From Marispirochaeta sp. (GTDB taxonomy: Bacteria > Spirochaetota > Spirochaetia > JC444 > Marispirochaetaceae): DNA of 64,000 nt. Shown piece after piece: positions 7,493-56,150 of this stretch; the stretch's first letter is position 1; every line of letters begins with the position of its first letter. A program made the translations under genes and the position numbers. Where the stretch lies: the NCBI GenBank assembly GCA_963676835.2, contig CAXXFF010000001.1, forward strand, positions 96,001 to 160,000, in the 5' to 3' direction. The notes under the pieces were generated by a model. The model worked only from the letters and a program-made list of their open reading frames with translations. It searched no databases and had not been told where the DNA came from.

Positions 7493-7545
7493 AGCGCCCC
7501 CCTTATCGTAAAATGCATCTGGATCCGAACCGAAGACCCGTTTTC

Positions 7546-40388: not shown

Positions 40389-40436
40389 TTTATGGGCGAT
40401 GACGGACTTGAACCGCCGACATCCTGCTTGTAAGGC
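40389..40436. repeat. att direct repeat (duplicated 3' part of tRNA-Val)
   Basis: 48 bp identical to 51680-51727; identity ends 2 bp past the anticodon loop. Confidence 0.97.
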
Positions 40437-40474
40437 CTCTCGGCTTTAGCCCTTACTGTATATACCTGTAGATT

Positions 40475-40502
40475 AGTGTAGCATATATAAAGAATTAGTC
40501 AA
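40475..40502 (-). promoter_or_regulatory. Putative sigma-70 promoter pointing into the att core
   Basis: TTGACT-N16-TACACT with TGn extended -10. Confidence 0.5.
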
Positions 40503-40540
40503 TACTGCTGTAGATGGTTGTAGACCTGTATGTCAAACTT

Positions 40541-40562
40541 TTAGTAACAATTTTGGTAACAG
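40541..40562. repeat. Integrase arm-type site pair (left end)
   Basis: TTAGTAACAA and TTGGTAACAG at 12-bp spacing; matches the pair at 51594-51615. Confidence 0.7.
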
Positions 40563-40676
40563 TACTTGAACTGCGCAATAAGCAGGATGTCGATTTCTAC
40601 CCTTCTCGCCGACACCCTGTCTTACAAGCAGTGAGTCTCCCAGGCATTACTTGACCTTGGCATAAAGCGGGCAGCT

Positions 40677-40964
40677 TTGCTGGAAGAGAGGGCGAAGGAC
40701 AACCAGCGCGCTGGTGGAGGCGACCAGAAATCGGGTTTTCAGAAATCTGAAAAGGCGATTGAACCAATCAACACCACCAAAGAAATAGCAGACTATGCCG
40801 GGGTCAGTATAGACACGGCATCGAAGTATAAAAAGTCAACTTTACTTGACTTTACTTTTTTAAAGCCGGTATTTCCGGGCATCCGGGGGTCCAACTTGGG
40901 TGTCCAATATATATCTCTCCCAGGACCCGAAAAAAAAGAGCCGCCCCATATCATCACGACATAG
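40677..40964 (+). pseudogene. Fragment resembling the linker plus HTH of phage ParB-like proteins
   Basis: AKDNQRAGGGDQKS...TTKEIADYAGVSIDTASK; TTG start without clear RBS; the tail looks non-coding. Confidence 0.4.
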
Positions 40965-40970
40965 GACGGC
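40930..40970 (-). terminator. Intrinsic terminator ending the satellite structural operon
   Basis: GCCGTCCTATGTC-GTGAT-GATATGGGGCGGC (13 bp including G-U pairs) plus TCTTTTTTTT. Confidence 0.85.
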
Positions 40971-41097
40971 AAAGTTAAGGAGGGCCGTGGCTATAGAACC
41001 ACGGAAAAGGAGGTAACTGCCTGTGAAACTATTTCACTATTAAAGCAGGCAGCACCACCAATATTTAATCGCCAAGGGAGACCCCTAACCCCGACGG

Positions 41098-41553
41098 TTA
41101 AACCATATTACAGATCATCTTCACTGTTGCTTCCATGCTGGCCGTGCGCACAGCTTCCAGAGGATCATTCAGGCGTGTTCCAATCTCTCCGCGTATGCTT
41201 TTAATGTTCTGTTGCTGCAGCCAGACAAGCCGGTCTTCTACTGCTTGCCGGATTACCGGAGCAATGTCAGTATCAAACTTCTTCAGGTTGCTGGAAACAT
41301 AACTTTCCGCAGCTTTCAGGTCTTCTTTCTTCTTCAGTTCAATTGCAGTGTCTTTGAGGGAAAAAATAGCCCGCTTTATTCCATCATCTTTTGTCTTCAG
41401 TTCAACAATCAGCCGTGTAAACTCGGCTTCGTCTGTACCGTTGGCAAGGGCATCAGCCAGCTTCTTTTCGTTATCCTTGATCTGCTTGGTAAGGGCTTCT
41501 TGATCATTCCGAAGCTGCTGAATTCTATCGTTTACAGCCTTGCTTGTTTTCAT
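41098..41553 (-). CDS. Coiled-coil hypothetical protein
   Basis: 151 aa heptad-rich; ATGA overlap with the protease stop. Confidence 0.7.
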   Translation of the reverse strand: MKTSKAVNDRIQQLRNDQEALTKQIKDNEKKLADALANGTDEAEFTRLIVELKTKDDGIKRAIFSLKDTAIELKKKEDLKAAESYVSSNLKKFDTDIAPVIRQAVEDRLVWLQQQNIKSIRGEIGTRLNDPLEAVRTASMEATVKMICNMV

Positions 41554-42212
41554 ATCGCCTTCCTTTTATACGGATCTGCTGCAAGGATTGCTTTCGCCTG
41601 GTCGCGGATACCGTCAGGGCGTGAAATCAATCCAATACAGGCTGCAACCTGGGAGAAGTCCGGCTTGCTGTAGGATTCATTGAACAAGACTGCAGCAGAG
41701 TTGACTGCAGCTTCTTTCGTTGTTCCAGATTCACCACCTATATAGATGTCGCCGAAGCCGGCATCGACGATCTCCTTCCCGAAGAAATAGGTTGTTTCGT
41801 CCATCAGGTTAAGAATTTCTTCAACACTTTTCCCGGTGCGCCTGGAGTATGTTTCTGCAAGCTGATTATCCAGTCTTTCAAGCAGGACCGACTCTGCAGC
41901 ATGGTCCTTGGCATTTCCTATCGAAATGCCTGATGCCCGGTGAATCATCATCACCGCATCCGGTCCCACTGAAATTACATCGGCGGCCATGGCCATTACA
42001 GACGCCATGCTGGCAGCAAGTAGAATTTGCACCTCAACCTTGCCGGCATAATTCTCGATTTCCCGGTATATCTCGCGGCCGTCAAACACATAGCCGCCCG
42101 GAGAATTGATTACAATTAAAAGACTCTCCCCTGCAGCATCCTTTAATTGTTCCCGGAAATCGGCAGGCGTCACATCTTCACCGATAAAACCCGATATATA
42201 CAATGTTTTCAT
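41550..42212 (-). CDS. ClpP-type phage prohead maturation protease
   Basis: INSPGGYVFDG, LAASMAS, MMIHRA, YSRRTGKS...LMDETTYF...GFGD. Confidence 0.92.
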   Translation of the reverse strand: MKTLYISGFIGEDVTPADFREQLKDAAGESLLIVINSPGGYVFDGREIYREIENYAGKVEVQILLAASMASVMAMAADVISVGPDAVMMIHRASGISIGNAKDHAAESVLLERLDNQLAETYSRRTGKSVEEILNLMDETTYFFGKEIVDAGFGDIYIGGESGTTKEAAVNSAAVLFNESYSKPDFSQVAACIGLISRPDGIRDQAKAILAADPYKRKAI

Positions 42213-42227
42213 ATCACCCCCAAATAT

Positions 42228-42247
42228 GCCCGCCGGTTAAGGCGGGC
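42228..42247 (-). terminator. Hairpin between MCP and protease (weak terminator or mRNA stabiliser)
   Basis: GCCCGCC-N6-GGCGGGC with a poor U-tract. Confidence 0.5.
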
Positions 42248-42260
42248 TATTGGCTATTCC

Positions 42261-43328
42261 CTATGTCCAACCGCTTCCGGTTGAAACACAAGTGTGATTT
42301 ATGTTTGCGGGAAGATACATAAACCGCGCATTTGACCGCAGCCATTCAACAGGAGGATCATTATCAATGAAAGAATCTATGACCAGATCCCCTACTTCCC
42401 GAACAATCTGCTTGCTGGGTGAAGTCACATCAACGCCACGATTACAGCGGTACCCAGGGCCGCCAAGATTGAACATGACCGCTTTGTCGACCGGCATGAA
42501 AGGAGCAGTTGAACCATCCTTGGTGGCAAGGTAAGGCCAATTCGGCTCGTAGGTGAGGATCCACACGGGTACAGGAACGCCGGTAATACTGTATCGTGCA
42601 GCAACGCGGAGACCTTCCGCACCTTTGAGCAGATCGGGAATAAGTTTTTCCTCGATCATGCTTTCAGGATTGGTGTAGTTCCGCTTTTCTTTGACATCTG
42701 CATCAGCAGTCCAGTCAGCGAACCAGTCAGATCCCATAAGAACCGCAAGGTTTCCGCGGGGGATGCCAAAAGGCGTCAGAGCGTCATACATAGCCTTGAG
42801 CGCGGCATCCATCGTAACGGAAGAGAAATTTGCGGTAAGCGTAAGTGATGAATCACGCTCAAAATCTATTTCCTTGACAGTTTCATCGCCATTGTATGCA
42901 GTGAATTTCCCGGTCAGGAATACATCAAGGGCGGCTTTCACGCGAGTCATGCGCGCAGCTGCAAGGAACCCTTTCGGCCCCTCTACAATATGGTGAACTG
43001 CCTGCCGTACATGGTCGGCCGCTCCAGACTTAGGATCTACGCCGGCAACGGCAGAATCCCGCAGGTGTTCATCAATTGGCGTTTTTTCCTTGAATACCGG
43101 AGGCTCAAATTCGTAGCCATCGCCAGGTTCATATTCCCTGACATGGGCTTCCTGCCCTTTTGTGAGCGCACGAAGCGCGAAAGGGTTGCCGGTATACGTA
43201 TCAATTTTGACGGTGGTGTTCCGGCTGTTATCCAAGGAAGGGAAAAGCACTTCATCGATCTGCTTTCCTTTAAAAGCCATATCCTCATAATAAAGTTTTG
43301 CGGTTTCGGTTAAAATCTGAATAGACAT
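42261..43328 (-). CDS. Major capsid protein (lambda gpE-like family)
   Basis: 355 aa; FEPPVFKEK, LTGKF...IDF, FMPVDKAVM and C-terminal DPPVEWLRSNARFMYLP pattern; follows a decoration-like gene. Confidence 0.8.
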   Translation of the reverse strand: MSIQILTETAKLYYEDMAFKGKQIDEVLFPSLDNSRNTTVKIDTYTGNPFALRALTKGQEAHVREYEPGDGYEFEPPVFKEKTPIDEHLRDSAVAGVDPKSGAADHVRQAVHHIVEGPKGFLAAARMTRVKAALDVFLTGKFTAYNGDETVKEIDFERDSSLTLTANFSSVTMDAALKAMYDALTPFGIPRGNLAVLMGSDWFADWTADADVKEKRNYTNPESMIEEKLIPDLLKGAEGLRVAARYSITGVPVPVWILTYEPNWPYLATKDGSTAPFMPVDKAVMFNLGGPGYRCNRGVDVTSPSKQIVREVGDLVIDSFIDNDPPVEWLRSNARFMYLPANINHTCVSTGSGWT

Positions 43329-43339
43329 CTATTGCCTCC

Positions 43340-43654
43340 TTAACGCAGAATGATGCCGTTGGTGAGTGCGGAATTCCGCAGATCATCTGTAACAGTGAGG
43401 GCTGCATCTGAGTCATCAACCAGAGCAGATTCCAGAATTTCAGATCCAGACACAGCAACAAGCAGCAGCCCTTCAGAAGAAAGGGTTTTATCTTCCCAGA
43501 CAATGCCCTGGATGGCTGAAGCGCTGTATTCGTAGTTGTCGTTTGTGTCGTTGTAAGCAACCGGCATACCGATGTAATAGGTATCAGCGGCGGCGGTTAG
43601 CTTCTTGGTTTTGATTGTCCCGGCAATGGGATAGGTTCCGTTGTATTCGGACAT
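43340..43654 (-). CDS. Head decoration protein (gpD-like)
   Basis: 104 aa immediately upstream of MCP; IQGIVWED...VSGSE...LRNSALTNGIILR pattern. Confidence 0.7.
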   Translation of the reverse strand: MSEYNGTYPIAGTIKTKKLTAAADTYYIGMPVAYNDTNDNYEYSASAIQGIVWEDKTLSSEGLLLVAVSGSEILESALVDDSDAALTVTDDLRNSALTNGIILR

Positions 43655-44004
43655 TATTTGCCTCCTTTAAGAATTGCAGCAGCCTGTTCTCTTACTGCAT
43701 GCGGCTTGAAATCTGCGTCCTGCCATGGTTCGCGTGCGGCTGAGATTCCACCGATTTCGGCAGAATTGTTTTTAGGTGGCACGTGATAGACGGCTGCAAC
43801 CTTCTCGGCGTAAGCCTGTGGTGATAAACCATTCTTGATTGCATCAAGCAATTCATCAGACAGCCTTGCACCTGAATCATTCAGCAACGCCATAATGTTG
43901 CTGGTCGCGGCGTTCCTACCCTGGACTTCTGCGGCAGTGATACACATTTCATGCTCTGCACGCAATTCCGGGTGGCTCTCGAAAACATGTTTTAGGGTTT
44001 CCAT
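43654..44004 (-). CDS. Putative stand-alone capsid scaffolding protein
   Basis: LKHVFESHPELRAE...AAEVQGR...DAIKNGLS resembles C-terminal scaffold domains of protease-scaffold fusions; sits before the decoration gene; RBS GGAGG. Confidence 0.55.
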   Translation of the reverse strand: METLKHVFESHPELRAEHEMCITAAEVQGRNAATSNIMALLNDSGARLSDELLDAIKNGLSPQAYAEKVAAVYHVPPKNNSAEIGGISAAREPWQDADFKPHAVREQAAAILKGGK

Positions 44005-44190
44005 AATCCCCTCCCAATTTATACCGGATTCCCGGCGATTTTTTCCGGCTCAAGCCGGATGTCAACTTGTCAATTACAGCGCTATGTCAACCAATCTCTG
44101 GGTGACAAAACCAATTTTCACCTCTCAGAAATCAACACACGCGGGTCCGGCTTTGGTTTCCGCATATATCCGTATAAGAACCTATTTGCC

Positions 44191-46257
44191 TCACAGATTG
44201 GCACCGCTCACCACCACTTCGCCGGCATCCACGCCCTTCTGCATCACTTCCCATATGACCGATTCGTCAAGCTTGGCCACGACAGTCAGGTTACCGGCGA
44301 TACTCTCACCCCTGGGCGTTACATGGATGTTTTCGCCTGGGTTAAACCGGTACAATTGACTATCCCCTCTGCTCGATGCTGCCGATTCAGGCACCACGAA
44401 ATTACCACCGGTTTCTGCTGGTATAGGTGTTGATAGAATCTTGATCTGCTGTGCCAGGCCGGATGCCAGTACAGCTGCAGCGGCAATGGTATTGGCCGGG
44501 AAAGGCACTTCGGCAAGTACACGGGTAAATGCAAGATAGCTGTTTATTGCCGCGGATGCTGAAGCAAGACCCTTTTCAAGAATGGCGGCTTCCCGGCTTT
44601 CATCTGAAAAGTTGCTGAAGATAGAAGCAAGCCCGCTGAGAAGATCGCCGGTTGCACTTATTGTTGCCTGACGGACTGCCAGTCTGGCAGCTTCCTGTTG
44701 GGCAACAATTGCAGTGAGGTTTCTTTCTGCCTCCCCTGCGGCTTCTGCTGCTTCAATCTGAGAAGTGACCCATTCATCAATCCAGCTCTGCCTTGTTTCC
44801 TGCGCGGTCCATAACGCCTCTTGGGCTGCTGTATTCTGTATGAGCTGTTCCTGCTGTAGCGTCAGTGCTTCTGTTTCTGCCTGGATGGCAAGTTCTGCTT
44901 CTTTTGATAATTGAACCGCTGCAGCCTTCTGAGCATTGAGAGAAATAGCGGCATTTTCCTCTTCCACATATGCAAGAGAGAGCATGGAATTTACTCGATG
45001 GAGAGACGTTTCAGCCTCCTCAAGTTTTTTGGTAACATTGATTCCGCGTAGTTTCTGCAGGTTGAGTTCATTTATTACATGTTCCTGCCATTTGGCCGCT
45101 TCGGTAAGGGTATCGACATCGCGGGCACCGTTTACCATAACCGCGTCAAATGCTTTCCGGCCGGCGGTGTAGCTGTTCATAGTAGTGAGGATGTCAGCAA
45201 GGAGGTTCTTTGCCGGGGTCAGTGCTTCAAGTACAAATGCGCCCCAATGTTCTTTTGATTCAACAACAGCTTCATTGAGACGCCGGCTGACATTGGCGGC
45301 ACTGTCTGCGGTTCGTGCATAATCACCGATGGCGTTTTTACTCTGTTCTGTGGCAAGTGCAAGGGTAGCATAAATCTTCGCCTGCTGCTCCGATGAAAAG
45401 GTCAGTCCTTGCTGTGCCTGTTCAAGCATTTCAGCTTTGACCATGGCATCATTGATAACGATTCCATAAGTTTTCAGGGCTTCTCGTTCGCCAGAGTAAG
45501 CGCTGGTTAAAGCCTTTGAGACTGCCTCTGCCCCACCTCTTGCATTGGTGAAGCTGGCAAGGTCAATGGCAAGTCGGTTGGTCTGGTCTGAAAGGTTCAA
45601 GGCTTCATCTGCTGCAAGACCGAAACCGGTTAACAGATCCCCGGTATTCCCTAAAAGCTTCCGGGCAGTAGAGCCGGCAAGGTCGAAATCTTCGGCAAGT
45701 GCATTGGCCATACGATTTGATTCTGTTGTCACCGAATCAAAGACAACTTCATATTTACTTAAAATCTCTTGGGCTTCGGATGCCGCTTCTGCGGATTCCT
45801 TGCTCACCTCTATCAGTTTGGAAAAACCATTCTGTGCAAGGCTGATAACTGAAGCGCCCAGGCCAACCATAACGCCATCCATGAGGCTGAATTTGCTGCT
45901 GGCTTTTTTGGCTTCTGCGGCTGCATCCTCAATTTCCGCGTCAAGTTGTTGGTATCGTTTTTTGAGAGATAGAACTGCTTCATCCTGCGGATTCAGTCCG
46001 TTCCGAATAAGCCTTTCAATTTCCCTGCGCAATCCCGCATGTTCTGCAGCTAAACCCTCAACCGGTCCCCGTGTCGCAGTGATTGCAGCGGCAGCCCTTT
46101 GATTCTTCTGAATAAAGCTGTCTATGGCATCATTCTTAAAAGACTTTTGAAACTTCTCTATCCGGGCAGCCTCTTTCTCTGTGAGCTGCCCGATTGACTT
46201 AATATCTGCAGCCGCTTTATCAAAATCGCTTTTAATTGTTAGGTTTATTTGTGCCAC
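44191..46257 (-). CDS. Tail tape-measure-like protein
   Basis: 688 aa Ala-rich helical; LAIDLASFTN...ALTSAYSGEREALKTYGIVI and C-terminal ETGGNFVVP...GDS...NPGENIHVTP TMP motifs. Confidence 0.85.
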   Translation of the reverse strand: MAQINLTIKSDFDKAAADIKSIGQLTEKEAARIEKFQKSFKNDAIDSFIQKNQRAAAAITATRGPVEGLAAEHAGLRREIERLIRNGLNPQDEAVLSLKKRYQQLDAEIEDAAAEAKKASSKFSLMDGVMVGLGASVISLAQNGFSKLIEVSKESAEAASEAQEILSKYEVVFDSVTTESNRMANALAEDFDLAGSTARKLLGNTGDLLTGFGLAADEALNLSDQTNRLAIDLASFTNARGGAEAVSKALTSAYSGEREALKTYGIVINDAMVKAEMLEQAQQGLTFSSEQQAKIYATLALATEQSKNAIGDYARTADSAANVSRRLNEAVVESKEHWGAFVLEALTPAKNLLADILTTMNSYTAGRKAFDAVMVNGARDVDTLTEAAKWQEHVINELNLQKLRGINVTKKLEEAETSLHRVNSMLSLAYVEEENAAISLNAQKAAAVQLSKEAELAIQAETEALTLQQEQLIQNTAAQEALWTAQETRQSWIDEWVTSQIEAAEAAGEAERNLTAIVAQQEAARLAVRQATISATGDLLSGLASIFSNFSDESREAAILEKGLASASAAINSYLAFTRVLAEVPFPANTIAAAAVLASGLAQQIKILSTPIPAETGGNFVVPESAASSRGDSQLYRFNPGENIHVTPRGESIAGNLTVVAKLDESVIWEVMQKGVDAGEVVVSGANL

Positions 46258-46258
46258 G

Positions 46259-46540
46259 TTATGCCTCCTGCTCTTCGGGAACGATCAAACCGGGATAATA
46301 GATTTTGGCCATCCAGCTATCGGGAAAATCTTTTTGAAACATTGCGCTCAAATCGTCCCGGGACATACCAAGCAACCGGATCACCTTTTGCATGCGGCCT
46401 TCAATGATGGTTGTCCCCTTTTCACAGTCTCGAAGTGATTCAATCAGCAGATTGATTGAAGTTTCTATTGCATGCAGAGCTATGCCGGTGCATACATGCT
46501 GGTCCGGTAGTAATCCTGTTTTTTTCTTTCGTGCCATCAT
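46259..46540 (-). CDS. Hypothetical protein
   Basis: 93 aa, RBS GGAGG, ends 1 nt before the TMP start. Confidence 0.65.
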   Translation of the reverse strand: MMARKKKTGLLPDQHVCTGIALHAIETSINLLIESLRDCEKGTTIIEGRMQKVIRLLGMSRDDLSAMFQKDFPDSWMAKIYYPGLIVPEEQEA

Positions 46541-46553
46541 CTATTGCCTCCAA

Positions 46554-47843
46554 TCAAAAAATATCAAGGACATTACTGGCGCTTTCGTTACCAGTAACCC
46601 CAGGTGTAACCGGTAACCCCGGTAACTCGGTAACCGAGTCTTTAGAAACCGGGTTACTACGGTTTCCAGAGTTACCATGGGTTACTGCGGTTACCGGGGT
46701 TACCGGTTCTTCACCTGCAATGCAGTACACACCAGACATGCTGTTTAATTTCCCGTCCTTAGACATTGACCACATTAATTTCTTTATAGCTGACTCACTT
46801 CGAGAGTCACCGGTTTCTTGTAAATGCCGGTGCATATCTTTTGGTGTCATTGGACCGAGACGTTTAATGATGTCAAAAATTATTTGTCGTTCTTCAGTTT
46901 TTTGTATTTCTTGCACTTCACCTTTGATTGACCAAGTGCCGATGGAAGCATCAAAATCCATCGCATATTCTTTCTCTTCTACGTCTCGACCGGTGATTGA
47001 AAGGACGGCTTGGCGTGACATGCGATCACGACGTAAAACCATGGTTGTATCTGCACCCGCGGCAAAAGCCTGTGATCCAAGCACTGAAGAAACAAAATCA
47101 GAAGCCTCGGCTTTTCTGGTGTGATGAACGCATACTATTGCTGTCTCTGTTTCGTCGGCAACAGCTTTTAATTCACTTACAAAATTGGTTACACTGTGGT
47201 AATCATTGCCATCCTCAATGTGTGCAAACATGCCAAGGGTATCGATCACGCATAGACGGGTTTCAGGAAACTTCTCAAGCCATTCCCGCAGTTTTTCAAC
47301 TGGTTTTTCCCTGGGCCAAGAAAGAACGATTTGACAATCATCGCGGGGTTCAGCGCCTGTCTTGATTAAACGGCTTTTCATTCGTCGAGCAGTATCTTCA
47401 AGTGCCAGGTACAACGTGGGGCCTGGATCAACTTTTATTTTACCGAGGACATAACCACCAGCCGCGACGGCAGTTACAACCGAAAGGACCATCCAAGACT
47501 TCCCCATTTTTGAAGGACCAGCAAACAAGGAATATCCTTCAGGTATCAATCCGGGGACAATCCATTTCGGTTCTGGAAAATCAGTTGAAAATAGCTCTCT
47601 GGTGCTCCACACGATTTTTCTTGTCTTATTTTCAGGTATATCAACCTGAACGTCTTTGTAGACGCCTAACTGCTCTTCAACCAGATATCGTGCATTGAAA
47701 GGAGGTGTCCCGCAAAAGGTTTTTTCCCCTGCCTGAATAAACTTTTCAATTTCACTTAAAATATTCAGCAGTTCATCAGGGGTTTTAAGTTTGAGACTTT
47801 CAGCAAAATCTATTCCTTCCGTTTTTTTAATACTTTTTGACAT
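46554..47843 (-). CDS. AAA_25/RepA-type replicative helicase with C-terminal wHTH
   Basis: PKWIVPGLIP, GPSKMGKS, LYLALED, VIDTL, VHHTRK, GSQAF; TGATG coupling with the upstream gene. Confidence 0.88.
   Translation of the reverse strand: MSKSIKKTEGIDFAESLKLKTPDELLNILSEIEKFIQAGEKTFCGTPPFNARYLVEEQLGVYKDVQVDIPENKTRKIVWSTRELFSTDFPEPKWIVPGLIPEGYSLFAGPSKMGKSWMVLSVVTAVAAGGYVLGKIKVDPGPTLYLALEDTARRMKSRLIKTGAEPRDDCQIVLSWPREKPVEKLREWLEKFPETRLCVIDTLGMFAHIEDGNDYHSVTNFVSELKAVADETETAIVCVHHTRKAEASDFVSSVLGSQAFAAGADTTMVLRRDRMSRQAVLSITGRDVEEKEYAMDFDASIGTWSIKGEVQEIQKTEERQIIFDIIKRLGPMTPKDMHRHLQETGDSRSESAIKKLMWSMSKDGKLNSMSGVYCIAGEEPVTPVTAVTHGNSGNRSNPVSKDSVTELPGLPVTPGVTGNESASNVLDIF
46587..46703. repeat. GTAAC/GTTAC iteron array, putative replication origin
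   Basis: GTAAC at 46594, 46606, 46613, 46622, 46630; GTTAC at 46587, 46653, 46671, 46681, 46690, 46699. Confidence 0.75.
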
Positions 47844-48181
47844 CAACGATCCCCAGCCAACCAACTAAGAAAAGGGTCCGCAAGATCTGCAACATCATCT
47901 GTTTTAGGTTTATCGCCTGTATAAAAAAAGCGTTGCCCTGGTAGCAGAACTGTCACGCCCGGCGTTACCTGTCCAGCCTTGATTAACCTGCCTATGACAT
48001 CTTCTGTGGATACCCGATAGAAGAGCAGATACCCATCAACGGCTGTTACGGCAGCAGTTTTTTCGGCAAGTCTTGTTGTGATCCCACGTGTTTCTTTGTA
48101 ATCCGAAATCGCAGCTCTTCCGTATTCTTTCGTGACATGTACAGCAATGATGCCTGACGGGACATTAGCCTTTTGCAGCAT
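47843..48181 (-). CDS. Hypothetical protein
   Basis: 112 aa, coupled in the alpA-rep operon. Confidence 0.65.
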   Translation of the reverse strand: MLQKANVPSGIIAVHVTKEYGRAAISDYKETRGITTRLAEKTAAVTAVDGYLLFYRVSTEDVIGRLIKAGQVTPGVTVLLPGQRFFYTGDKPKTDDVADLADPFLSWLAGDR

Positions 48182-48353
48182 AAGAACTCCGGTGATCCGG
48201 TTTCATTGTTTCGGAAATTGTCTTTTCGATTTTGCTGATACGGCCGGCATGAACAGTGACCATAGCACCAACGGACCCAAAGGGATTGGCCGCGATCTGT
48301 TCTTGAAAAAACTTGGCAACCGCCAGAATTTCGGGTTCAAGATTGACGGTCAT
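48165..48353 (-). CDS. Small DUF2292-like protein
   Basis: FGSVGAMVTVHAGRISKIEKT. Confidence 0.55.
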   Translation of the reverse strand: MTVNLEPEILAVAKFFQEQIAANPFGSVGAMVTVHAGRISKIEKTISETMKPDHRSSYAAKG

Positions 48354-48532
48354 CGGCGTCCTCCAACAGGAACACGCCTTGAATCAATCCATTCTCGAAT
48401 TTCTTCAGGATCGAAGAAAACCCTTGAGCCAATTTTAATGTGTGGTAGCTGGCCTCTTGAAACCAGCGCCCTCACGGTCTGCTCCGCTAACGGTAGTTCC
48501 GCTTTTATTGTTTTATAAGTTAGAAGTGCCAT
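48350..48532 (-). CDS. AlpA/excisionase-type HTH protein
   Basis: LAEQTVRALVSRGQLPHIKIGSRVFFDPEEIREWI; RBS AGGAGG. Confidence 0.9.
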   Translation of the reverse strand: MALLTYKTIKAELPLAEQTVRALVSRGQLPHIKIGSRVFFDPEEIREWIDSRRVPVGGRR

Positions 48533-48629
48533 CGCTGTACCTCCTGCGCTTTATCTGTGCATAAGGTAGCCTGACTGTTGTGAGTTGTATTGAGGGAAAA
48601 ATTACGGGGATTATGCGGGGATTATGTTT

Positions 48630-49328
48630 TTATATAAGATTATTAAAAGTTTCTCGTTCCATCTTCGAAAAAAAATGATCATTTTTTGATAGCGTCTCGT
48701 CTTCCTTTCTTTGAACCGCTGGGACAATATCAGCATAGGAGCCATCTTTCTTCCTGTATACATATTGCCCAAATAATTCAGGTATTGTGGTTTTTTCTGA
48801 AAAGAACTTGCTGTAAATACATTTAGCCCTACCAATGGTTCCGGTGAAAATATATTTCCCGCTATCTGCCGGATCCTTTTTAACTAAATTTAGGGTTACA
48901 AGAGTTGAATGGAAGGCATCGGTGAAGTTGACTACATGGTTCCCACCATCCTGTTGATTCCAGTCCTTAGGTCCGCATCCAAATACACGTAGCTTTGATT
49001 CAATTTCTTCAATAAGTCCGTTAATATTATTAAAATCATCAGGATGTTCATTACCAAGCATCTCATCTAAGTATTGCTTTTGCCGCAGAGCGTGACTGCG
49101 CTGTTTTTTTAGGTTTTCTATCCTGGCTTCATTTGAATTTGGAAATTCTTCCCGTAGCTCACGCATGTAATCACTAAACGTTCTGCCAGCAATTGTGTAT
49201 TCTGGTCCATTTTTATATAGGCCTATGCTCTGGTTAAATCTATATCGCTCTGAACCGGTCACAGGCTCACCCTGAGAATTACCTTCAATAAAATTTATAG
49301 CATCTTTGTAAAATTCATCATCAGTCAT
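48630..49328 (-). CDS. Hypothetical protein
   Basis: 232 aa with RBS GGGAGG; no family recognised. Confidence 0.7.
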   Translation of the reverse strand: MTDDEFYKDAINFIEGNSQGEPVTGSERYRFNQSIGLYKNGPEYTIAGRTFSDYMRELREEFPNSNEARIENLKKQRSHALRQKQYLDEMLGNEHPDDFNNINGLIEEIESKLRVFGCGPKDWNQQDGGNHVVNFTDAFHSTLVTLNLVKKDPADSGKYIFTGTIGRAKCIYSKFFSEKTTIPELFGQYVYRKKDGSYADIVPAVQRKEDETLSKNDHFFSKMERETFNNLI

Positions 49329-49336
49329 TTAGCCCG

Positions 49337-49430
49337 CCCTCCCTTGACGGTCCCGGAAGAGAAACAACCAGGGCAGGCGGCCGGGAAAGCCGCTTTTCCT
49401 CCCGTCGGAGTAGCCCTGGCCATTATAGCA
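49337..49430 (-). ncRNA. Structured cis-regulatory or antisense leader RNA with extended -10 promoter
   Basis: TGC-TATAAT (49422-49430); outer stem CCAGGGC/GCCCTGG enclosing two hairpins whose loops are complementary to CCGGGA-CCGTC next to the RBS. Confidence 0.65.
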
Positions 49431-49433
49431 TTA

Positions 49434-49715
49434 TTAAACTGCAACAGCCGCTGCGGGTTCGGTCAAGAGGCCATTTGCCCTGGCTATATTGCGGCATTCC
49501 TGAAATATTTTCTCAGCTTCATCAAGATCAAAAATAATCGATGAGTCCTCAAAGACATCCTCAAAAGTTACCGTAAATTCCCCATCCATAAGGAAACCGT
49601 CAAGCTCAATCACACCGCTGTCGCTCTTCACTTCGCGAACAATGCCTACCACACCAATTTCCAGAACAACCACTCTTCCAATCAAACTTCCAGCATACCT
49701 TTTGCTTACGATCAT
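49434..49715 (-). CDS. Hypothetical protein
   Basis: 93 aa, RBS GAGGAG. Confidence 0.6.
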   Translation of the reverse strand: MIVSKRYAGSLIGRVVVLEIGVVGIVREVKSDSGVIELDGFLMDGEFTVTFEDVFEDSSIIFDLDEAEKIFQECRNIARANGLLTEPAAAVAV

Positions 49716-49773
49716 CTTTTTTCTCCTCGCCTCTCGGCTTCTTTTATTTTTTCCGCGCCCATACGGGATACGG

Positions 49774-50172
49774 TTATTCTTGAATTAAATCTAACCAATA
49801 CGCGGCTTTTTTCTTTGCATGGAATTTCTTAAAACTAAACCACCCATAACACTGCTCTTCTGTTATCTCCTTTAAAGTTTTTCCTATACTGCTTCTGTAA
49901 TCTGAAAGACGGTCAATTTTTGATAGGTACTTTAAAAATACGTCATGCCATTCGCTATGGGGGGTCCCTGGAACCTCGATCCAATCTTGATGTTCAATGA
50001 AATAATCCTCATCAACGCCTATATTAGATCCGGCCCATTCTGTCTCCATGGTTTTTATATTCAAGAAACATCTATCATCCATAGTGAACGGATCATCTCT
50101 TTCAAACGCCATAACAATAGAATCGTTATCATCAAGTAGGCCGGCTTTTTCTTCAATGTCAAAATAATTCAT
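49774..50172 (-). CDS. UPF0158-like protein
   Basis: FLNIKTME...WIEVP...WFSFK...AAYWL pattern; ATG 50172 after GAGG. Confidence 0.5.
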   Translation of the reverse strand: MNYFDIEEKAGLLDDNDSIVMAFERDDPFTMDDRCFLNIKTMETEWAGSNIGVDEDYFIEHQDWIEVPGTPHSEWHDVFLKYLSKIDRLSDYRSSIGKTLKEITEEQCYGWFSFKKFHAKKKAAYWLDLIQE

Positions 50173-50185
50173 TAAATTCACCTCA

Positions 50186-50377
50186 TTAACTACTTTTCCG
50201 CGTCTCACAGACACGGTTTTCTCGCCTATATTGTCGGTCGATTTTCCCATCCAAATAGCCACTACTCCAAGACAACCCATCAACCCCTTTTGGTGGTGGA
50301 TATGGCCGGCGCTCAAATCCTGCAGCATACCCCTTCTTCCAATCCTCAAGGTCAAGTTCGATTCTGAACTCACTCAT
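50186..50377 (-). CDS. Small RMF/CrpP-like protein
   Basis: WKKGYAAG...PYP...WSSGYLDG; ATGA overlap with the integrase stop. Confidence 0.5.
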   Translation of the reverse strand: MSEFRIELDLEDWKKGYAAGFERRPYPPPKGVDGLSWSSGYLDGKIDRQYRRENRVCETRKSS

Positions 50378-51576
50378 GAAACTGCCTCTTTAATTTGCCA
50401 GAATTCATCTATCGCCGGCTTTGAAGGCAGAGCCTTTTTTATTGCCCGTTCAAGCTGGAATGGATCATAAATATCTGTAACTGCTGAATTTTTATGACCT
50501 AACAGGCCCTGAAGTATCGAATCTGGAACATCAGCGGAAATCATCAGTTCGCGCATTTTGCTTGTATAAGTGTATCGAAGTGAATGAACATCGATTTCAC
50601 GTTTTATGGTCTTTGCTGCAGCCCGCTTCAGTCTTTTTAAAATGTAAGTTTGGTCGAATGGCTCACCATCCCACATAAAAAGGGGCGTATCATCGTAAGG
50701 AGGGTGACCGATAAGTTCTTGAATATCATGCAGGGTTCTTTCGGGTAAAAGCGCAATCCGGCGTGGGTCTTTGTCCGGGTTCCGCTGCCGTCCCGGTAGA
50801 CCATATTCGCCGGACCGGTACATCTGCCGGAAAATCTTGATTGCCCCGGCCTCCGGCATTACATCAGACTTCCACCACCCCCGAGCCTCACCGCTGCGGG
50901 CTCCGGTACTCATGATGGTTTCCATTAGCACGCCAACATGGAAATCGTCCCACACCTGAATAAATGCATTCCGTTCTTCAGGAAACAATAGCACTATTTC
51001 CGAATCCGTAAGCGGTTGCCGGTGTTTCACTCGCTTATTACCATAAGGCTCTATCTGGGGAACAGACCGGATAATATTCTCCCGCCTAGCTTCCCGGAGT
51101 ATGATATTCAATGTATAGATAATCTGGTTTTTTGTACTGTTGGCCAGATTGTGCCCGCTGCCGTCTTCAGTCTTGAGCTTGTATGATTTCAACCGCAAGA
51201 GCCATTTCTCAACAGCTGGGGCAGTTATTTCATTAAGCTTGCATCCTCCCCACTTCGGAAGAATGTAATAATCAAGGTGCCCTCTTCTATCTTTTGCAGT
51301 ATCCTCACAGACAGACCGGTCTTTTGCATTCTGGCGGGCGACATAATCACACTTGCCCCAGACAAAAAAATCCTTTGTGTATTCTGCAAGTGTGGGGTTT
51401 TTGACTGAGGGGTCATATTCATGTAAATGTTCTTTTGCCCAGGCATGGGCGCGATATTGGTTAGTTTCACCTGTCGAGAGAGTTTTAATAACTTTCCCGG
51501 AATTATCTAAAATTCGGACATAGTAGACTTTTTTCTTTCCAGATGTACGCTTAAAAACACGAAAACCGACAGCCAT
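50374..51576 (-). CDS. Tyrosine integrase of the satellite
   Basis: TGARSGE, HSLRYT, LLGH...IYD; ATG 51576 after GGAGG; adjacent to tRNA-Val. Confidence 0.95.
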   Translation of the reverse strand: MAVGFRVFKRTSGKKKVYYVRILDNSGKVIKTLSTGETNQYRAHAWAKEHLHEYDPSVKNPTLAEYTKDFFVWGKCDYVARQNAKDRSVCEDTAKDRRGHLDYYILPKWGGCKLNEITAPAVEKWLLRLKSYKLKTEDGSGHNLANSTKNQIIYTLNIILREARRENIIRSVPQIEPYGNKRVKHRQPLTDSEIVLLFPEERNAFIQVWDDFHVGVLMETIMSTGARSGEARGWWKSDVMPEAGAIKIFRQMYRSGEYGLPGRQRNPDKDPRRIALLPERTLHDIQELIGHPPYDDTPLFMWDGEPFDQTYILKRLKRAAAKTIKREIDVHSLRYTYTSKMRELMISADVPDSILQGLLGHKNSAVTDIYDPFQLERAIKKALPSKPAIDEFWQIKEAVS

Positions 51577-51593
51577 AACGCCTCCATTCCAGC

Positions 51594-51629
51594 TTGGTAA
51601 CAAGCATGGTAACAGTAAGGGTTAAAACC
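51594..51629. repeat. Integrase arm-type site pair (right end) and 17-bp subterminal inverted repeat
   Basis: TTGGTAACAA/ATGGTAACAG; CAGTAAGGGTTAAAACC (51613-51629) matches the reverse complement of 40442-40458 at 15/17. Confidence 0.7.
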
Positions 51630-51683
51630 ATCGGTTTTCCGGTAGGTCTAACGCTAAGTCCTTAATAAATAAAGACTTATTTA

Positions 51684-51756
<73 letters not shown>

Positions 51757-51903: not shown

Positions 51904-53937
51904 ATGCACAAAATGCGCAACATAGGAATAATCGCACATATAGACGCAGGTAAAACAACAACCACCGAACGTATCCTTTTCTATACGGGAAAGAGCCATC
52001 GTATCGGTGAGGTTCATGATGGAGAAGCCACCATGGACTGGATGACCCAGGAGCAGGACAGAGGAATTACAATTACTTCCGCTGCCACAACATGCTTCTG
52101 GAAGGATCACCAGATTAACATAATCGATACTCCCGGCCATGTTGACTTTACCGCCGAAGTTGAGCGCTCATTACGGGTTCTTGACGGCGCTGTCGGTATT
52201 TTCTGTGCAGTCGGCGGCGTTGAACCCCAGTCTGAAACAGTCTGGCATCAGGCTGACCATTATCATGTACCCCGCCTCGCCTACATAAACAAGATGGACC
52301 GGATCGGTGCCGACTTCTTTTCTGTTATAGAAGAGATGAAGAAAAAGCTGGGTGCAAATCCTGTACCTCTGCAGTTTCCCATTGGTGCTGAATCCGAGTT
52401 TGAAGGCGTAGTTGACCTTATATCCATGCAGGAAATCCACTGGGATCAGGAAACTTCGGGCCACGAGTTTTCCTATGCCCCTATTCGGGAAGCCCTCGCA
52501 GATAAAGCGGAAGAGCTTAAGGAGTCTCTGGTTGACACCTGCTCCGCCTTCAGTGATGAGATAACAGAACTATACCTTGAAGGACAGGAGATCCCCCGGG
52601 ATCTGCTGATTTCGGTACTCAGAAAAGCCACCATGGAAAGGGAGATTGTCCCGGTTCTCTGTGGAGCTTCCTTTAAGAACATTGGAGTACAGCCTGTTCT
52701 TGATGCAGTCCTTGAGCTCCTCCCTGCCCCGGATGAGGTACCGCCTACCCACGGCATGATTGTCAAGAATGAAGAAGAAACCACCGTTCCCTGTGACCCC
52801 GACGGCCCTCCCCTTGCCCTGGCTTTTAAAATTCAGACAGACAGAGAGGCCGGAGCATATACCTTTATCCGGGTTTATTCGGGAAGCATAAAAAAAGGTG
52901 CGGCGGTTTATAACATAAACAAGAAAAAGAAGGAACGGATAAACCGGCTCCTGCGGATGCACGCCAACAGATCCGAAGCGGTAGATTCCGTTTCCGCAGG
53001 TGATATTGCGGTTATAATCGGCTGCAAGTTTACCCAGACCGGAGACACACTGGGGTCAGAGGGGCATCAGGTACTTCTTGAGCAGATGCATTTCCCCATG
53101 CCGGTAATTGATGTTGCCATCGAACCGAAGAGCATTTCGGAAGCAAAAAAGTTACGGGATATTCTCGATCTGCTCCAGAAAGAGGATCCCACCTTTATGG
53201 TCAAGGAAGATGCGGAAACGGGACAGCTGATTATTTCCGGCATGGGAGAGCTTCACCTGGACGTACTGGTAACCAGAATAACCCAGGATTTCAACGTCGA
53301 TGCCCGTATAGGTAATCCTCAGGTCACCTATCGTGAATCCATTACAGTTAAACATTCTCACACAGAGGTGTACGAAAAAGTTCTTGGCGGCAAAGAAAAC
53401 TTTGCGTCTGTTACCCTACGGGTAGAGCCGCTGGAAAGAGGTTCGGGGAACCAGTTTAAATCTGATCTGAAAAAATCCGACCTGCCTCTGGAACTGGTGG
53501 AAGCCGTTGAAAGAGGGGTCACCAATGCCTTCTCTTCGGGGATCATGTTCGGCTATCAGTGCTATGATGTGGGCGTAACCCTTGAAGCTGCCAAATACGA
53601 TGAACTGAAGGCCACTCCCCTGGCCTTCGAGGCTGCAGCAGCCATGGGCTTCGACAACGCCTGCAGAGAGGCATCGCCGGTACTGCTTGAGCCGGTAATG
53701 ACCGTGGATGTTATGTGTCCCAAGGATTTTGTCGGTGAAGTTATTAACCACCTTACAACCCGAAACGGTATTATAAACAGCCTTGAATCCCGTACCACGA
53801 TAGAACATGTTCGCGCCCAGGTACCACTGGCAAATATGTTCGGCTACTCCACCGCCCTGCGGAGCATTACCCAGGGACGTGGAACCTTTGCCATGGAATT
53901 CAGCCATTTTCAGGAAAAACCCGGCGGTCTCGGTTAA
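51904..53937 (+). CDS. fusA: Elongation factor G paralog (spirochaete EF-G2-like, recycling type)
   Basis: [29 protein letters not shown]; divergent domain IV loops. Confidence 0.93.
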
Positions 53938-53968
53938 ATCAAAGCCTTTTCTTCTCTTTTCGACTGTT

Positions 53969-53999
53969 AGACCCGGCCCTTTTGGGGGCCGGGTTTTTT
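53969..53999 (+). terminator. Intrinsic terminator
   Basis: ACCCGGCCC...GGGCCGGGT plus T-run. Confidence 0.85.
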
Positions 54000-54068
54000 G
54001 TTGACATCTCACAGGGGTGGGTCTATCCTGAATTTGCAAACAAATTCTTAACAGAAAGAGGAGCACAC

Positions 54069-56150
54069 ATGAGTTTTTCCACTGCTGATATCCGCAACAT
54101 TGCACTTGTTGGTCATGGAAGCACTGGTAAAACCACCTTGTTAGAACAGCTGCTGTTCAACTCGGGGGTTATTGACCGGGCCGAATCCGTTGAATCAGGA
54201 AAAACAGTAAGCGATTTTACTGAAGAGGAAATCGCCAGGGGGATTTCGATTCATACAACCCTGTCCAGCTGTACCTGGAACGAACACCAGGTAAACTTAC
54301 TGGATACCCCGGGCTCCGGAGATTTTGTGGGTGAAGTTGTTGCTTCCTTCCGCTGTGCGGAAAGCGCCTTAATGGTTGTGGACGGAAGAGACGGTGTACA
54401 GATTGAAACAATCAAGCTGTGGCGCCGCCTTGATCACCGGAACAAACCGCGTTTTGTGTTCATCAACCGAATGGATAGAGAACGGGCGGATTTTGATAAA
54501 ACATTTGCAGATTTAAAAGAAAAATTTTCCAAGACATTTGTGCCGGTTACCATCCCCATGATGAAAGACGGGGAGTATCTGGGCATAATCAATTTAATTG
54601 AAAATAAAGCATACATGGTTCATGACGGGGCGGAAAAAGACGTTCCTGTTGATATTCCAGCCGATTTTGCTTCCCAGGTGGAAGAATATCGGTTGACCCT
54701 TATCGAAAGCGCCGCAGAAGGTGAAGACTCTCTTATGGAGAAATACTTCGAAGAGGGAACATTGAGCCCTGATGAAATCCGCAAAGGTCTCATTGAAGGT
54801 CTCAAGCACAACAAAATTGTGCCTACCCTCTGCGGAAGTGCGGTAAACAATAACGGCGTTGTCTCCCTGCTCAACTTTATCAGTAATATTACCCCTTCAC
54901 CGGCGGGTATTCCGGAACTTGCCAAAGACCGTGAAGGTAAAGAAGAGCACCTGGATATCCACGCCGAAGGCCCTCTAAAATGTATGGTGTTCAAAACTTC
55001 CATCGATCAGTTCTCCGGAAAACTCTCCTATATCAAAATTATAGGCGGAGTTCTCAATGCAGATTCAGAAGTGCTGAACTGTACCAACGATAAAAAAGAA
55101 CGTATCGGAAAGCTGTACAAGTCTCTGGGGAAAAAGCTGATCGAAGTAAAGGACCTCACCGCAGGCGATCTGGGAATTGTAACCAAGGTGGACTCCTTCG
55201 AAACCAATACAACCTTCTCTTCTCCGGACACCTTCCTGATTATAGATGCTCTGCATCTTCCACAGCCGGTATTCTCCCTTGCCATCAGTGCCAACAGCAA
55301 AAAAGATGAAGATAAGCTGCATGCATCCCTGCATAAAGCTGCCGAAGAGGATCTTACCTTTCAGCTGACCTATAACAATGAGACCCATGAAAATGTGATC
55401 TCCGGTATGGGCGAACTGCAGATTAATATGGTTCTGGACAAGATCAAGGAAAAGCAGAAAATCGAGGTTGAAACCAAGGTGCCCATGGTTGCCTACCGGG
55501 AAACCATAACCAAAAAGGCCGGAGCCGAGTACACCCATAAAAAGCAGTCCGGCGGACACGGACAGTACGGCCGGGTTGTTATGGATATAGGACCCATTGA
55601 ACGGGGAAAATACCTTGAATTTTACAATGATATTAAAGGCGGTTCCATCTCAAAAGGATACATGCCCGGTATCGAAAAAGGTATTACCGAAGCCATGGAA
55701 GAGGGTTTTCTGGCGGGCTATCCAATTGTGGATATCGAAACCCATATAATCGACGGAAAGGAGCATCCCGTAGACTCTTCCGAAATGGCCTTCAAACTGG
55801 CCGCAAAAGGTGCACTCAAGGCTTCTTTAGAAAAAGCAGGAGTAGTTCTTCTTGAGCCGGTCATGAAACTCAGGGTGTTTGTAGATGAACAGTATCTGGG
55901 AGACATTCTTTCTGACCTTTCTTCCCGCCGTGGACGGGTTCTGGGGCAGGAAGCCCTTGGGGGAGGCATCAATGAAGTTGATGCGGAAGTTCCCCAGGCA
56001 GAACTTTTGCGTTACGCCATTGATCTTAAATCAATGACCTCCGGCACAGGTTCATTTGAGCTGGAATTTGACCACTATAATCCCATTTCCGGTAAAGTTG
56101 CCGAATCTGTTATTGCTGAAGCCAAGCAGCGAAAGGGAACGGAAGAATAA
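54069..56150 (+). CDS. Elongation factor G-like protein (EF-G II type)
   Basis: GHGSTGKTT, RGISI, DTPGSGDF, HKKQSGGHGQYG, HPVDSSEMAF. Confidence 0.92.
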   Translation: MSFSTADIRNIALVGHGSTGKTTLLEQLLFNSGVIDRAESVESGKTVSDFTEEEIARGISIHTTLSSCTWNEHQVNLLDTPGSGDFVGEVVASFRCAESALMVVDGRDGVQIETIKLWRRLDHRNKPRFVFINRMDRERADFDKTFADLKEKFSKTFVPVTIPMMKDGEYLGIINLIENKAYMVHDGAEKDVPVDIPADFASQVEEYRLTLIESAAEGEDSLMEKYFEEGTLSPDEIRKGLIEGLKHNKIVPTLCGSAVNNNGVVSLLNFISNITPSPAGIPELAKDREGKEEHLDIHAEGPLKCMVFKTSIDQFSGKLSYIKIIGGVLNADSEVLNCTNDKKERIGKLYKSLGKKLIEVKDLTAGDLGIVTKVDSFETNTTFSSPDTFLIIDALHLPQPVFSLAISANSKKDEDKLHASLHKAAEEDLTFQLTYNNETHENVISGMGELQINMVLDKIKEKQKIEVETKVPMVAYRETITKKAGAEYTHKKQSGGHGQYGRVVMDIGPIERGKYLEFYNDIKGGSISKGYMPGIEKGITEAMEEGFLAGYPIVDIETHIIDGKEHPVDSSEMAFKLAAKGALKASLEKAGVVLLEPVMKLRVFVDEQYLGDILSDLSSRRGRVLGQEALGGGINEVDAEVPQAELLRYAIDLKSMTSGTGSFELEFDHYNPISGKVAESVIAEAKQRKGTEE

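Follow-up and report, generated by a model that had tools for sequence, protein, structure and literature searches.

Beside the attR end of an 11.3-kb element integrated at tRNA-Val, four att-like segments are better read as two core-type integrase sites in inverted orientation (sites 1 and 2), with the long hairpin into which they fold as a by-product. These sites are probably (at a rough probability of 0.6) DNA that is read by protein, namely, accessory core-type binding sites for the satellite's own heterobivalent tyrosine integrase. The support in hand consists of geometry, target covariation, footprint-sized copies, and an intact integrase. Integrases that target tRNA genes are commonly depicted with att sites made up of a single core and its arms. 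What appears to be new here is the presence of target-matched accessory core sites beside arm repeats, plus a second site, specific to this window (the whole 64-kb stretch of DNA analyzed), at what looks like a captured gene fragment; the arrangement would be a variation on known att design.

Table 1. Features of the satellite and its attachment sites (positions in the window)
Feature	Position	Strand	Remarks
attR, 48-bp repeat of tRNA-Val(TAC) 3' half	40389..40436	-	7-bp overlap (anticodon loop) at 40428-40434
Short direct repeats in the interval from arm pair to core, overlapping the promoter	40465..40526	-	Candidate excisionase/RDF sites
Sigma70-type promoter-like site facing the core	40475..40502	-	Would transcribe int in the circular form, after excision
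Distal arm-type direct-repeat pair of P arm	40542..40561	-	Same 8-mer pair at 51595-51614 and in G003/G005
Site 2, extra core-type dyad	40564..40592	.	2-bp gap to arm pair; half next to the arm 4/11, outer half 11/11, with a foreign spacer between them at 40575-40581
Site 1, second core-type dyad, inverted versus site 2	40610..40638	.	Inner half 9/11, spacer 40621-40627 (true overlap, inverted), outer half 7/11; junction with parB fragment
Phage-type ParB-like gene fragment, 5' and 3' truncated	40635..40835	+	84% identity to 245-aa P0014 (PHROG ParB-like); 18-bp near-palindrome at 40736-40753
Intrinsic-terminator-like hairpin	40940..40970	-	Would stop element transcripts short of sites 1 and 2
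ClpP-like head maturation protease and major capsid protein (satellite head module)	41550..43328	-	
Tape-measure-like protein	44191..46257	-	phrog_3336, E 1.8e-8
AAA_25/primase-helicase-like replication protein	46554..47864	-	Domain/profile match
HTH_17 excisionase-like protein	48350..48532	-	Domain/profile match
Tyrosine integrase	50374..51603	-	Catalytic R, H-x-x-R, H, and Y invariant; predicted N-terminal three-strand-plus-helix domain (arm-binding type)
Arm-type direct-repeat pair of P' arm, beside attL	51595..51614	-	
attL inside intact tRNA-Val(TAC) gene	51680..51756	-	attL 51680-51727; tRNA gene 51684-51756

The element and its integrase

A perfect 48-bp repeat, a copy of the tRNA-Val(TAC) 3' half from the anticodon loop on, delimits the element, and the overlaps of attL and attR are identical. 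The integrase gene adjoins the tRNA. Its product matches PF00589, and the invariance of R227, H331, R334, H361, and Y370 indicates that the catalytic residues are intact. In the structural model, residues 4 to 54 form three strands and a helix (pLDDT, 77 to 87), a fold that we take to be that of the arm-binding domain; no Pfam arm-domain match was obtained for the integrase. The closest solved structures in whole-chain Foldseek comparison are Tn1549, lambda, and Xer enzymes, at 17 to 20% identity. Integrases that are 78% identical form a cluster whose sources carry the name Marispirochaeta, which makes the host a spirochete.

Judged from its integrase, excisionase-like, helicase, capsid, and protease genes, and with no match to a terminase or portal among its ORFs (Pfam, PHROG, and NCBIfam labels), the element is a phage satellite. 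Like PICIs and capsid-forming PICIs, it is approximately 11 kb in size, is tRNA integrated, and has integrase, excisionase, helicase, capsid, and protease genes and an att-distal cargo hotspot; it differs from them in the terminase and portal, which were not found, and in the presence of a tape-measure-like gene, the comparison being one of Pfam, PHROG, and NCBIfam gene labels.

The head module (41098-46540) encodes a capsid protein, a ClpP-like protease, and a 688-amino-acid tape-measure-like protein, with no terminase or portal match. The relative in G003 has a small terminase and a primase instead, and viral contigs of about 10 kb with a related protease exist (L001, L002, L006, and L008). 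An int-alpA RNA motif (RF02996) is located at 49352-49420, upstream of a 232-amino-acid ORF inside the satellite, and two tandem elongation factor G-like genes (51904-56150) adjoin tRNA-Val.

Two core-type dyads beside the P arm

Arm-type direct-repeat pairs flank the 7-bp core on both sides, a layout common to most of the 22 elements described below. The P arm is conserved across the same-genus elements G003 and G005 in its promoter-like site, short repeats, and direct-repeat pair. One promoter-like site was found, against 1.3 expected by chance, yet it is kept in both G003 and G005. The att-like stretch starts 2 bp past the distal arm pair.

The earlier note described four att-like segments in this stretch, and inspection of the sequence bore out their positions and identities: 13/13 (40580-40592), 12/13 (40607-40619), 15/16 (40616-40631), and, in direct reading, 11/13 (40562-40574). 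The match scan scored only an 8-nt exact part of the last of these, which taken alone is within chance, and its T-arm likeness was therefore rejected as an independent signal. Outside both att copies, the only tRNA-Val matches scoring 13 or more in the whole window are two that lie in this stretch.

A core-type dyad was defined as an 11-bp half-site, a 7-bp spacer, and a second half-site, scored out of 22, with half-site R being the 11 nt that follow the anticodon loop on its 3' side. On this scale, attL and attR, the true cores, reach 11+7 and 11+4, respectively, and the half-sites of site 1 (9/11 and 7/11) are as good as those of attL (left half, 7/11) and better than those of attR (left half, 4/11). 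The tRNA match of the site 1 inner half extends to 40607, and its spacer is indeed the att overlap in inverted form, as had been stated. Six dyads in the window score 15 or more (attL, attR, sites 1 and 2, and two scattered ones). The 4.43-Mb genome contains 230 dyads at this level and 41 at 16 or more, so that two within 75 bp of the arm are not a matter of chance.

Since the two dyads face each other, hairpin folding follows necessarily. The long hairpin claimed in the earlier note does form in predictions, but its stability is ordinary, with z values for 40555-40645 of -1.49 (+ strand) and -1.91 (- strand) as RNA and of -1.32 and -1.13 as DNA. Given these values (-1.1 to -1.9) and its lack of conservation in relatives, the hairpin was rejected as a functional unit.

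Relatives and covariation with the target tRNA

The discovery set was drawn from spirochete elements located by integrase search (101 and 401 genomes; 20 loci). About 110 regions were examined, and the 22 elements with both a tRNA-adjacent integrase and an anticodon-loop attR were kept; L192 was left out as a duplicate of L035, and the attR and integrase of G005, which lie on different contigs, are presumed to be linked. Irrespective of position, a half-site matching at 10 or more of 11 nt within 300 bp inside attR was present in 5/22 elements, versus 1/246 for other tRNAs and 0/630 interior windows. A fixed-slot rule, which calls for a dyad of at least 14/22 ending 0 to 6 bp from an automatically called arm pair, was passed by 5/22 elements, the other 17 scoring 10 or less, in a test that was tuned on the discovery set rather than blind, as the rule was set after four of the five positives were known. 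The background was 8/6112 at random positions and 5/289 for other tRNAs. Besides the window, the positives are the elements at Val-TAC in G005 (L178), Val-GAC and Pro-GGG in G002 (L035 and L183), and Pro-GGG in G307 (L242); the gap between the dyad end and the distal arm pair is 1 to 5 bp in all five.

The held-out set comprised 28 further attR copies found by pattern in chosen genomes, several of them from one genome and hence not independent; three sites already in the discovery set, one repeated copy, one site containing an N, and one at a contig start were dropped. One of the 28 passed (Arg-CCG in G313 [L381]; 9+5, 1-bp gap, and a weak automatic arm score), and none of the 16 held-out sites with confident arm calls passed the rule. 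Perfect 5+7+5 stem dyads in the arm region, a measure chosen afterwards, occur in 2/28 held-out sites (G313 and G404) versus 0/713. Across all sites, 6/50 attR sites passed the strict test, which makes the dyad a minority trait. Leu, Gly, and most Arg elements were set aside as site carriers, as none passed, and attB-left or attP-left half-sites scored in the arm-adjacent slot gave no signal.

No relatives were found in viral contigs searched with the integrase alone or the parB fragment, no usable attR was obtained by a protease search or an integrase-alignment search, and an arm-pattern scan of viral contigs gave matches essentially at chance level. A metagenome scan returned two contigs identical to the G005 attR and one unrelated match, without an independent case, and the half-site-plus-attR pattern had two matches in 401 genomes of the phylum, both of which are intact tRNA-Pro genes rather than attR.

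Covariation of the hairpin with the target tRNA had been called decisive in the earlier note. Covariation is present, as every site is best or tied best on its own target tRNA in a site-versus-target matrix, but the covarying unit is not a hairpin; it is a core half-site of 9 to 14 bp, part of a dyad whose 7-bp spacer is free. The target copies end after 9 to 14 bp, the size of a recombinase half-site, the spacers are unrelated to one another, and one half of the dyad is often poor (4 to 5 of 11). The five positives are scattered on the integrase tree, where they are unclustered and need five changes, a distribution that would reflect either repeated origin or repeated loss. The G003 element, whose integrase is almost identical to that of G005, is without the site and has other DNA in the slot, indicating that the site is dispensable. 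Furthermore, the Pro-CGG element of G061 retains a dyad of the Pro-GGG type, as in its relative, which scores 8+7 on that type but 4+3 on the element's own target; the site is thus inherited and can lag behind a change of target, which fits a protein-binding site and not a guide.

These comparisons also bear on the option that the stretch encodes a small RNA acting as a guide, as an antisense to the tRNA-half leader of int, or as an anticodon-arm decoy. Both strands can fold into one long hairpin, the + strand carries a near-perfect Val anticodon arm, and the sequences track the target tRNA. Such an RNA is nevertheless very improbable: the fold is not significant, relatives hold a single short dyad only, with spacers that vary freely, and the G061 site is mismatched to its present target. 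In addition, there is no + strand promoter, the window and G005 both have terminators upstream on the - strand, no Rfam match was obtained, and no IS110-type protein was found among the element ORFs scanned. The spare sites probably tune or redirect recombination rather than yield RNA.

Short target-matching segments on both strands of a foldable stretch are shared with IS110 bridge RNA, IS1111 seekRNA, integron attC, and the folded CTXphi attP. Unlike in these systems, the fold is not conserved here, and, with a single exception, the crossover region is left out of the matches; a DEDD recombinase as in IS110/IS1111 had no Pfam or PHROG match among the element ORFs scanned, and an integron integrase is likewise absent. 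A single-stranded DNA substrate resembling attC or the CTXphi attP, in which the fold would pair both sites into one core, is scarcely credible. The predicted fold does rebuild a half-site, a 7-nt bubble, and a half-site, but it needs both sites, which occur together in this window only, its energy is ordinary, no integron-integrase model scored above the cutoff, and the integrase has a predicted arm-type N-domain.

Other tRNA-derived copies were encountered in these genomes. In G002, an 18-bp repeat of the tRNA-Pro(TGG) 3' end lies 115 bp after the tRNA (L034:1079-1285) and is likely an island remnant. In G215, the 3' half of tRNA-Arg(TCT) is present in at least five attR-like copies that have arm repeats in common (L377, L382, L386, L392, and L393), which may be a tandem island array or scattered remnants. 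In Thr-targeting elements (window, ~7520-7540; L046, L261, and L264), the variable loop and T-arm are duplicated ~175 bp beyond the tRNA, in the interval between the last arm repeat and int and close behind that repeat. The duplicate tracks each host's own T-arm; two relatives (L048 and L049) are without it.

Site 1 and the parB fragment

Directly past site 1 lies a 67-codon open stretch that matches the middle of a ParB-like protein of 245 amino acids. Such fragments are found near attR in three satellites: that of the window, the G005 Thr element (L421), and the G003 Val element (L422). They have nearly the same 5' end and represent different alleles, and the G003 and G005 copies are in the opposite orientation to that of the window. 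In the G005 Thr element, a dyad marks the end of the fragment; its right half is Thr type (10/11), and the inner 6 bp of its left half are Val type. Near their right ends, this element (L175) and the Val element of G005 (L178/L057) share 304 bp at 90% and 86 bp at 93%; an apparent exchange of modules is implied by this sharing between two elements at different tRNAs.

An 18-bp near-palindrome is present in the parB fragments of the window and G005 and may represent a parS-like site acquired from a helper phage. L175 has three small perfect hairpins ahead of its parB fragment, and in the window, short direct and inverted repeats, possibly protein-binding sites, come just after the fragment (40827-40915).

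Site 1 is probably a junction left by integrase-mediated capture of parB DNA. A recombination scar, one of the options raised in the earlier note, is plausible for site 1 but does not account for site 2, which is found again at a constant spacing from the arm in unrelated integrase lineages.

On a rival reading, the integrase would swap or capture DNA at arm-adjacent dyads, at the right end of the element, tolerating unlike 7-bp spacers as Tn916-type enzymes do, and the dyads would be live junctions or scars. Several observations point this way: the parB alleles and orientations that differ among three elements, the core-like site at the fragment edge in the window and in the G005 Thr element, the hybrid look of the latter site together with the 304 bp shared within that genome, and the loss of matching between the near-identical G003 and G005 elements at the arm/dyad. 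In addition, Tn916/Tn1549 enzymes, with Tn1549 integrases as the best matches, are the top structural matches of the integrase, and the free 7-bp spacers resemble their coupling sequences. This use of the dyads is still rather unlikely. The perfect half is sometimes arm side and sometimes cargo side, the copies never continue into the T-arm, unlike a fresh att junction, and the G003 parB fragment has no core-like edge. The likeness to Tn1549 is weak (18 to 20% identity), and, in contrast to Tn916/Tn1549, the element uses a fixed tRNA site and has identical attL and attR overlaps, as for a homology-requiring enzyme. It is quite unlikely that the arm-adjacent dyads are portals operated by the satellite's own integrase, anchored on the arm repeats, for the capture and swapping of cargo at the att-distal hotspot. 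The cargo here would be parts of helper-phage parB genes that contain a palindrome, the exchange would cross 7-bp spacers that differ, and the whole would be an integron-like acquisition route in ordinary tRNA-targeting islands.

Site 1 might instead be a working second core that flips the 187-bp arm/promoter segment with attR (an excision lock) or an internal attB that traps elements aimed at tRNA-Val. The identical 7-bp overlap, inverted between half-sites of 9/11 and 7/11, makes the inversion suggested in the earlier note structurally possible for site 1, but this does not extend to site 2, and a site bearing the true overlap inverted is found in 1/50 attR sites (this window only). An exchange with attL would break the tRNA gene, and the short distance and the missing second arm set, both of which hinder synapsis in lambda-type intasomes, would make synapsis hard; a working second core is therefore improbable. 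In three contig runs, one contig, possibly from the source sample, spans 40407-51709 without differences, and no joint inside the element was found; contigs drop rare forms, and the result is silent on inversion and excision.

Comparison with known att designs

Lambda-type heterobivalent integrases (lambda, mv4, KplE1 IntS, and ICEMlSym IntS), as far as the consulted portions of the literature describe them, share with this element a 7-bp overlap between inverted half-sites, direct-repeat pairs at the arm ends, an excisionase, and an integrase promoter overlapping att. The same portions describe one core dyad in attP, whereas one or two more lie outside the distal arm pair here, with a spacer that is free or inverted.

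Haemophilus phage HP1 and Pasteurella phage F108 likewise target a tRNA anticodon loop. The HP1 attP has a core half-site (8/11) that stops 1 bp beyond the P-arm pair, a slot that it shares with G005 and the G002 Pro element (189/20000 shuffles), but the HP1 attP falls below the dyad threshold (10/22). In both phages, an inverted pair of core-like motifs lies just past the arm with a spacing of 15 bp (HP1) or 13 bp (F108), not 7 bp, and neither has a site bearing the true overlap reversed. Footprinting of the HP1 attP by Hakimi and Scocca in 1994 reportedly found extra core-type ("type I") inverted pairs. Supplementary Figure S2 of 10.1101/2023.11.06.565760 deals with HP1 and other att layouts and may bear on novelty. 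No such P-arm core site was found in phages 186, L5, and ZF40, and no report of arm-adjacent extra core dyads was found in the literature searched, most subscription papers being outside the search.

Proposed role of the accessory sites

Lambda integrase binds arms strongly and cores weakly and bridges both (PMC4880445), arm and core binding stabilize each other in the lambda and mv4 integrases, and the mv4 attP ends in two arm pairs (10.1101/2023.11.06.565760). Because of this mutual stabilization, integrase that is bound to an arm pair should also occupy a core dyad lying 2 bp away. The N-terminal domains of an integrase pair would grip the arm repeats, and the core-binding domains would rest on the site 2 dyad 2 bp away. 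With a spacer unlike the att overlap, site 2 should bind integrase yet not complete exchange with att; the foreign spacer would thus park integrase off the true core and raise the threshold for excision or reintegration. Excisionase and host bending proteins would later redirect the arm and end the parking. That the sites park arm-bound integrase and damp recombination in particular is put forward tentatively.

Site 2 may also help to repress the nearby promoter that would drive int in the circle. The KplE1 and ICEMlSym IntS integrases repress their own promoters from att (PMC2951348 and PMC11963761). Site 1, as a lineage-specific dyad, would most simply be the product of an integrase reaction between att DNA and a similar-looking site within a phage parB gene. 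Integrases of the Tn1549 family tolerate unlike spacers, and since the nearest structures to the satellite integrase are those of Tn1549 integrases, site 2 may not be inert.

A spare core dyad that keeps a fixed distance from the arms, and that unrelated integrase lineages have each retuned to their target tRNA, suggests that one level of excision control has been overlooked. The accessory dyads would provide a natural readout of the preferred half-site of each integrase, which is useful for retargeting, and they indicate the part whose omission may cost "minimal attP" cassettes some regulation. Cutting and exchange at these sites, if they take place, would account for the way in which satellites renew the cargo hotspot at their far end, a question of long standing.
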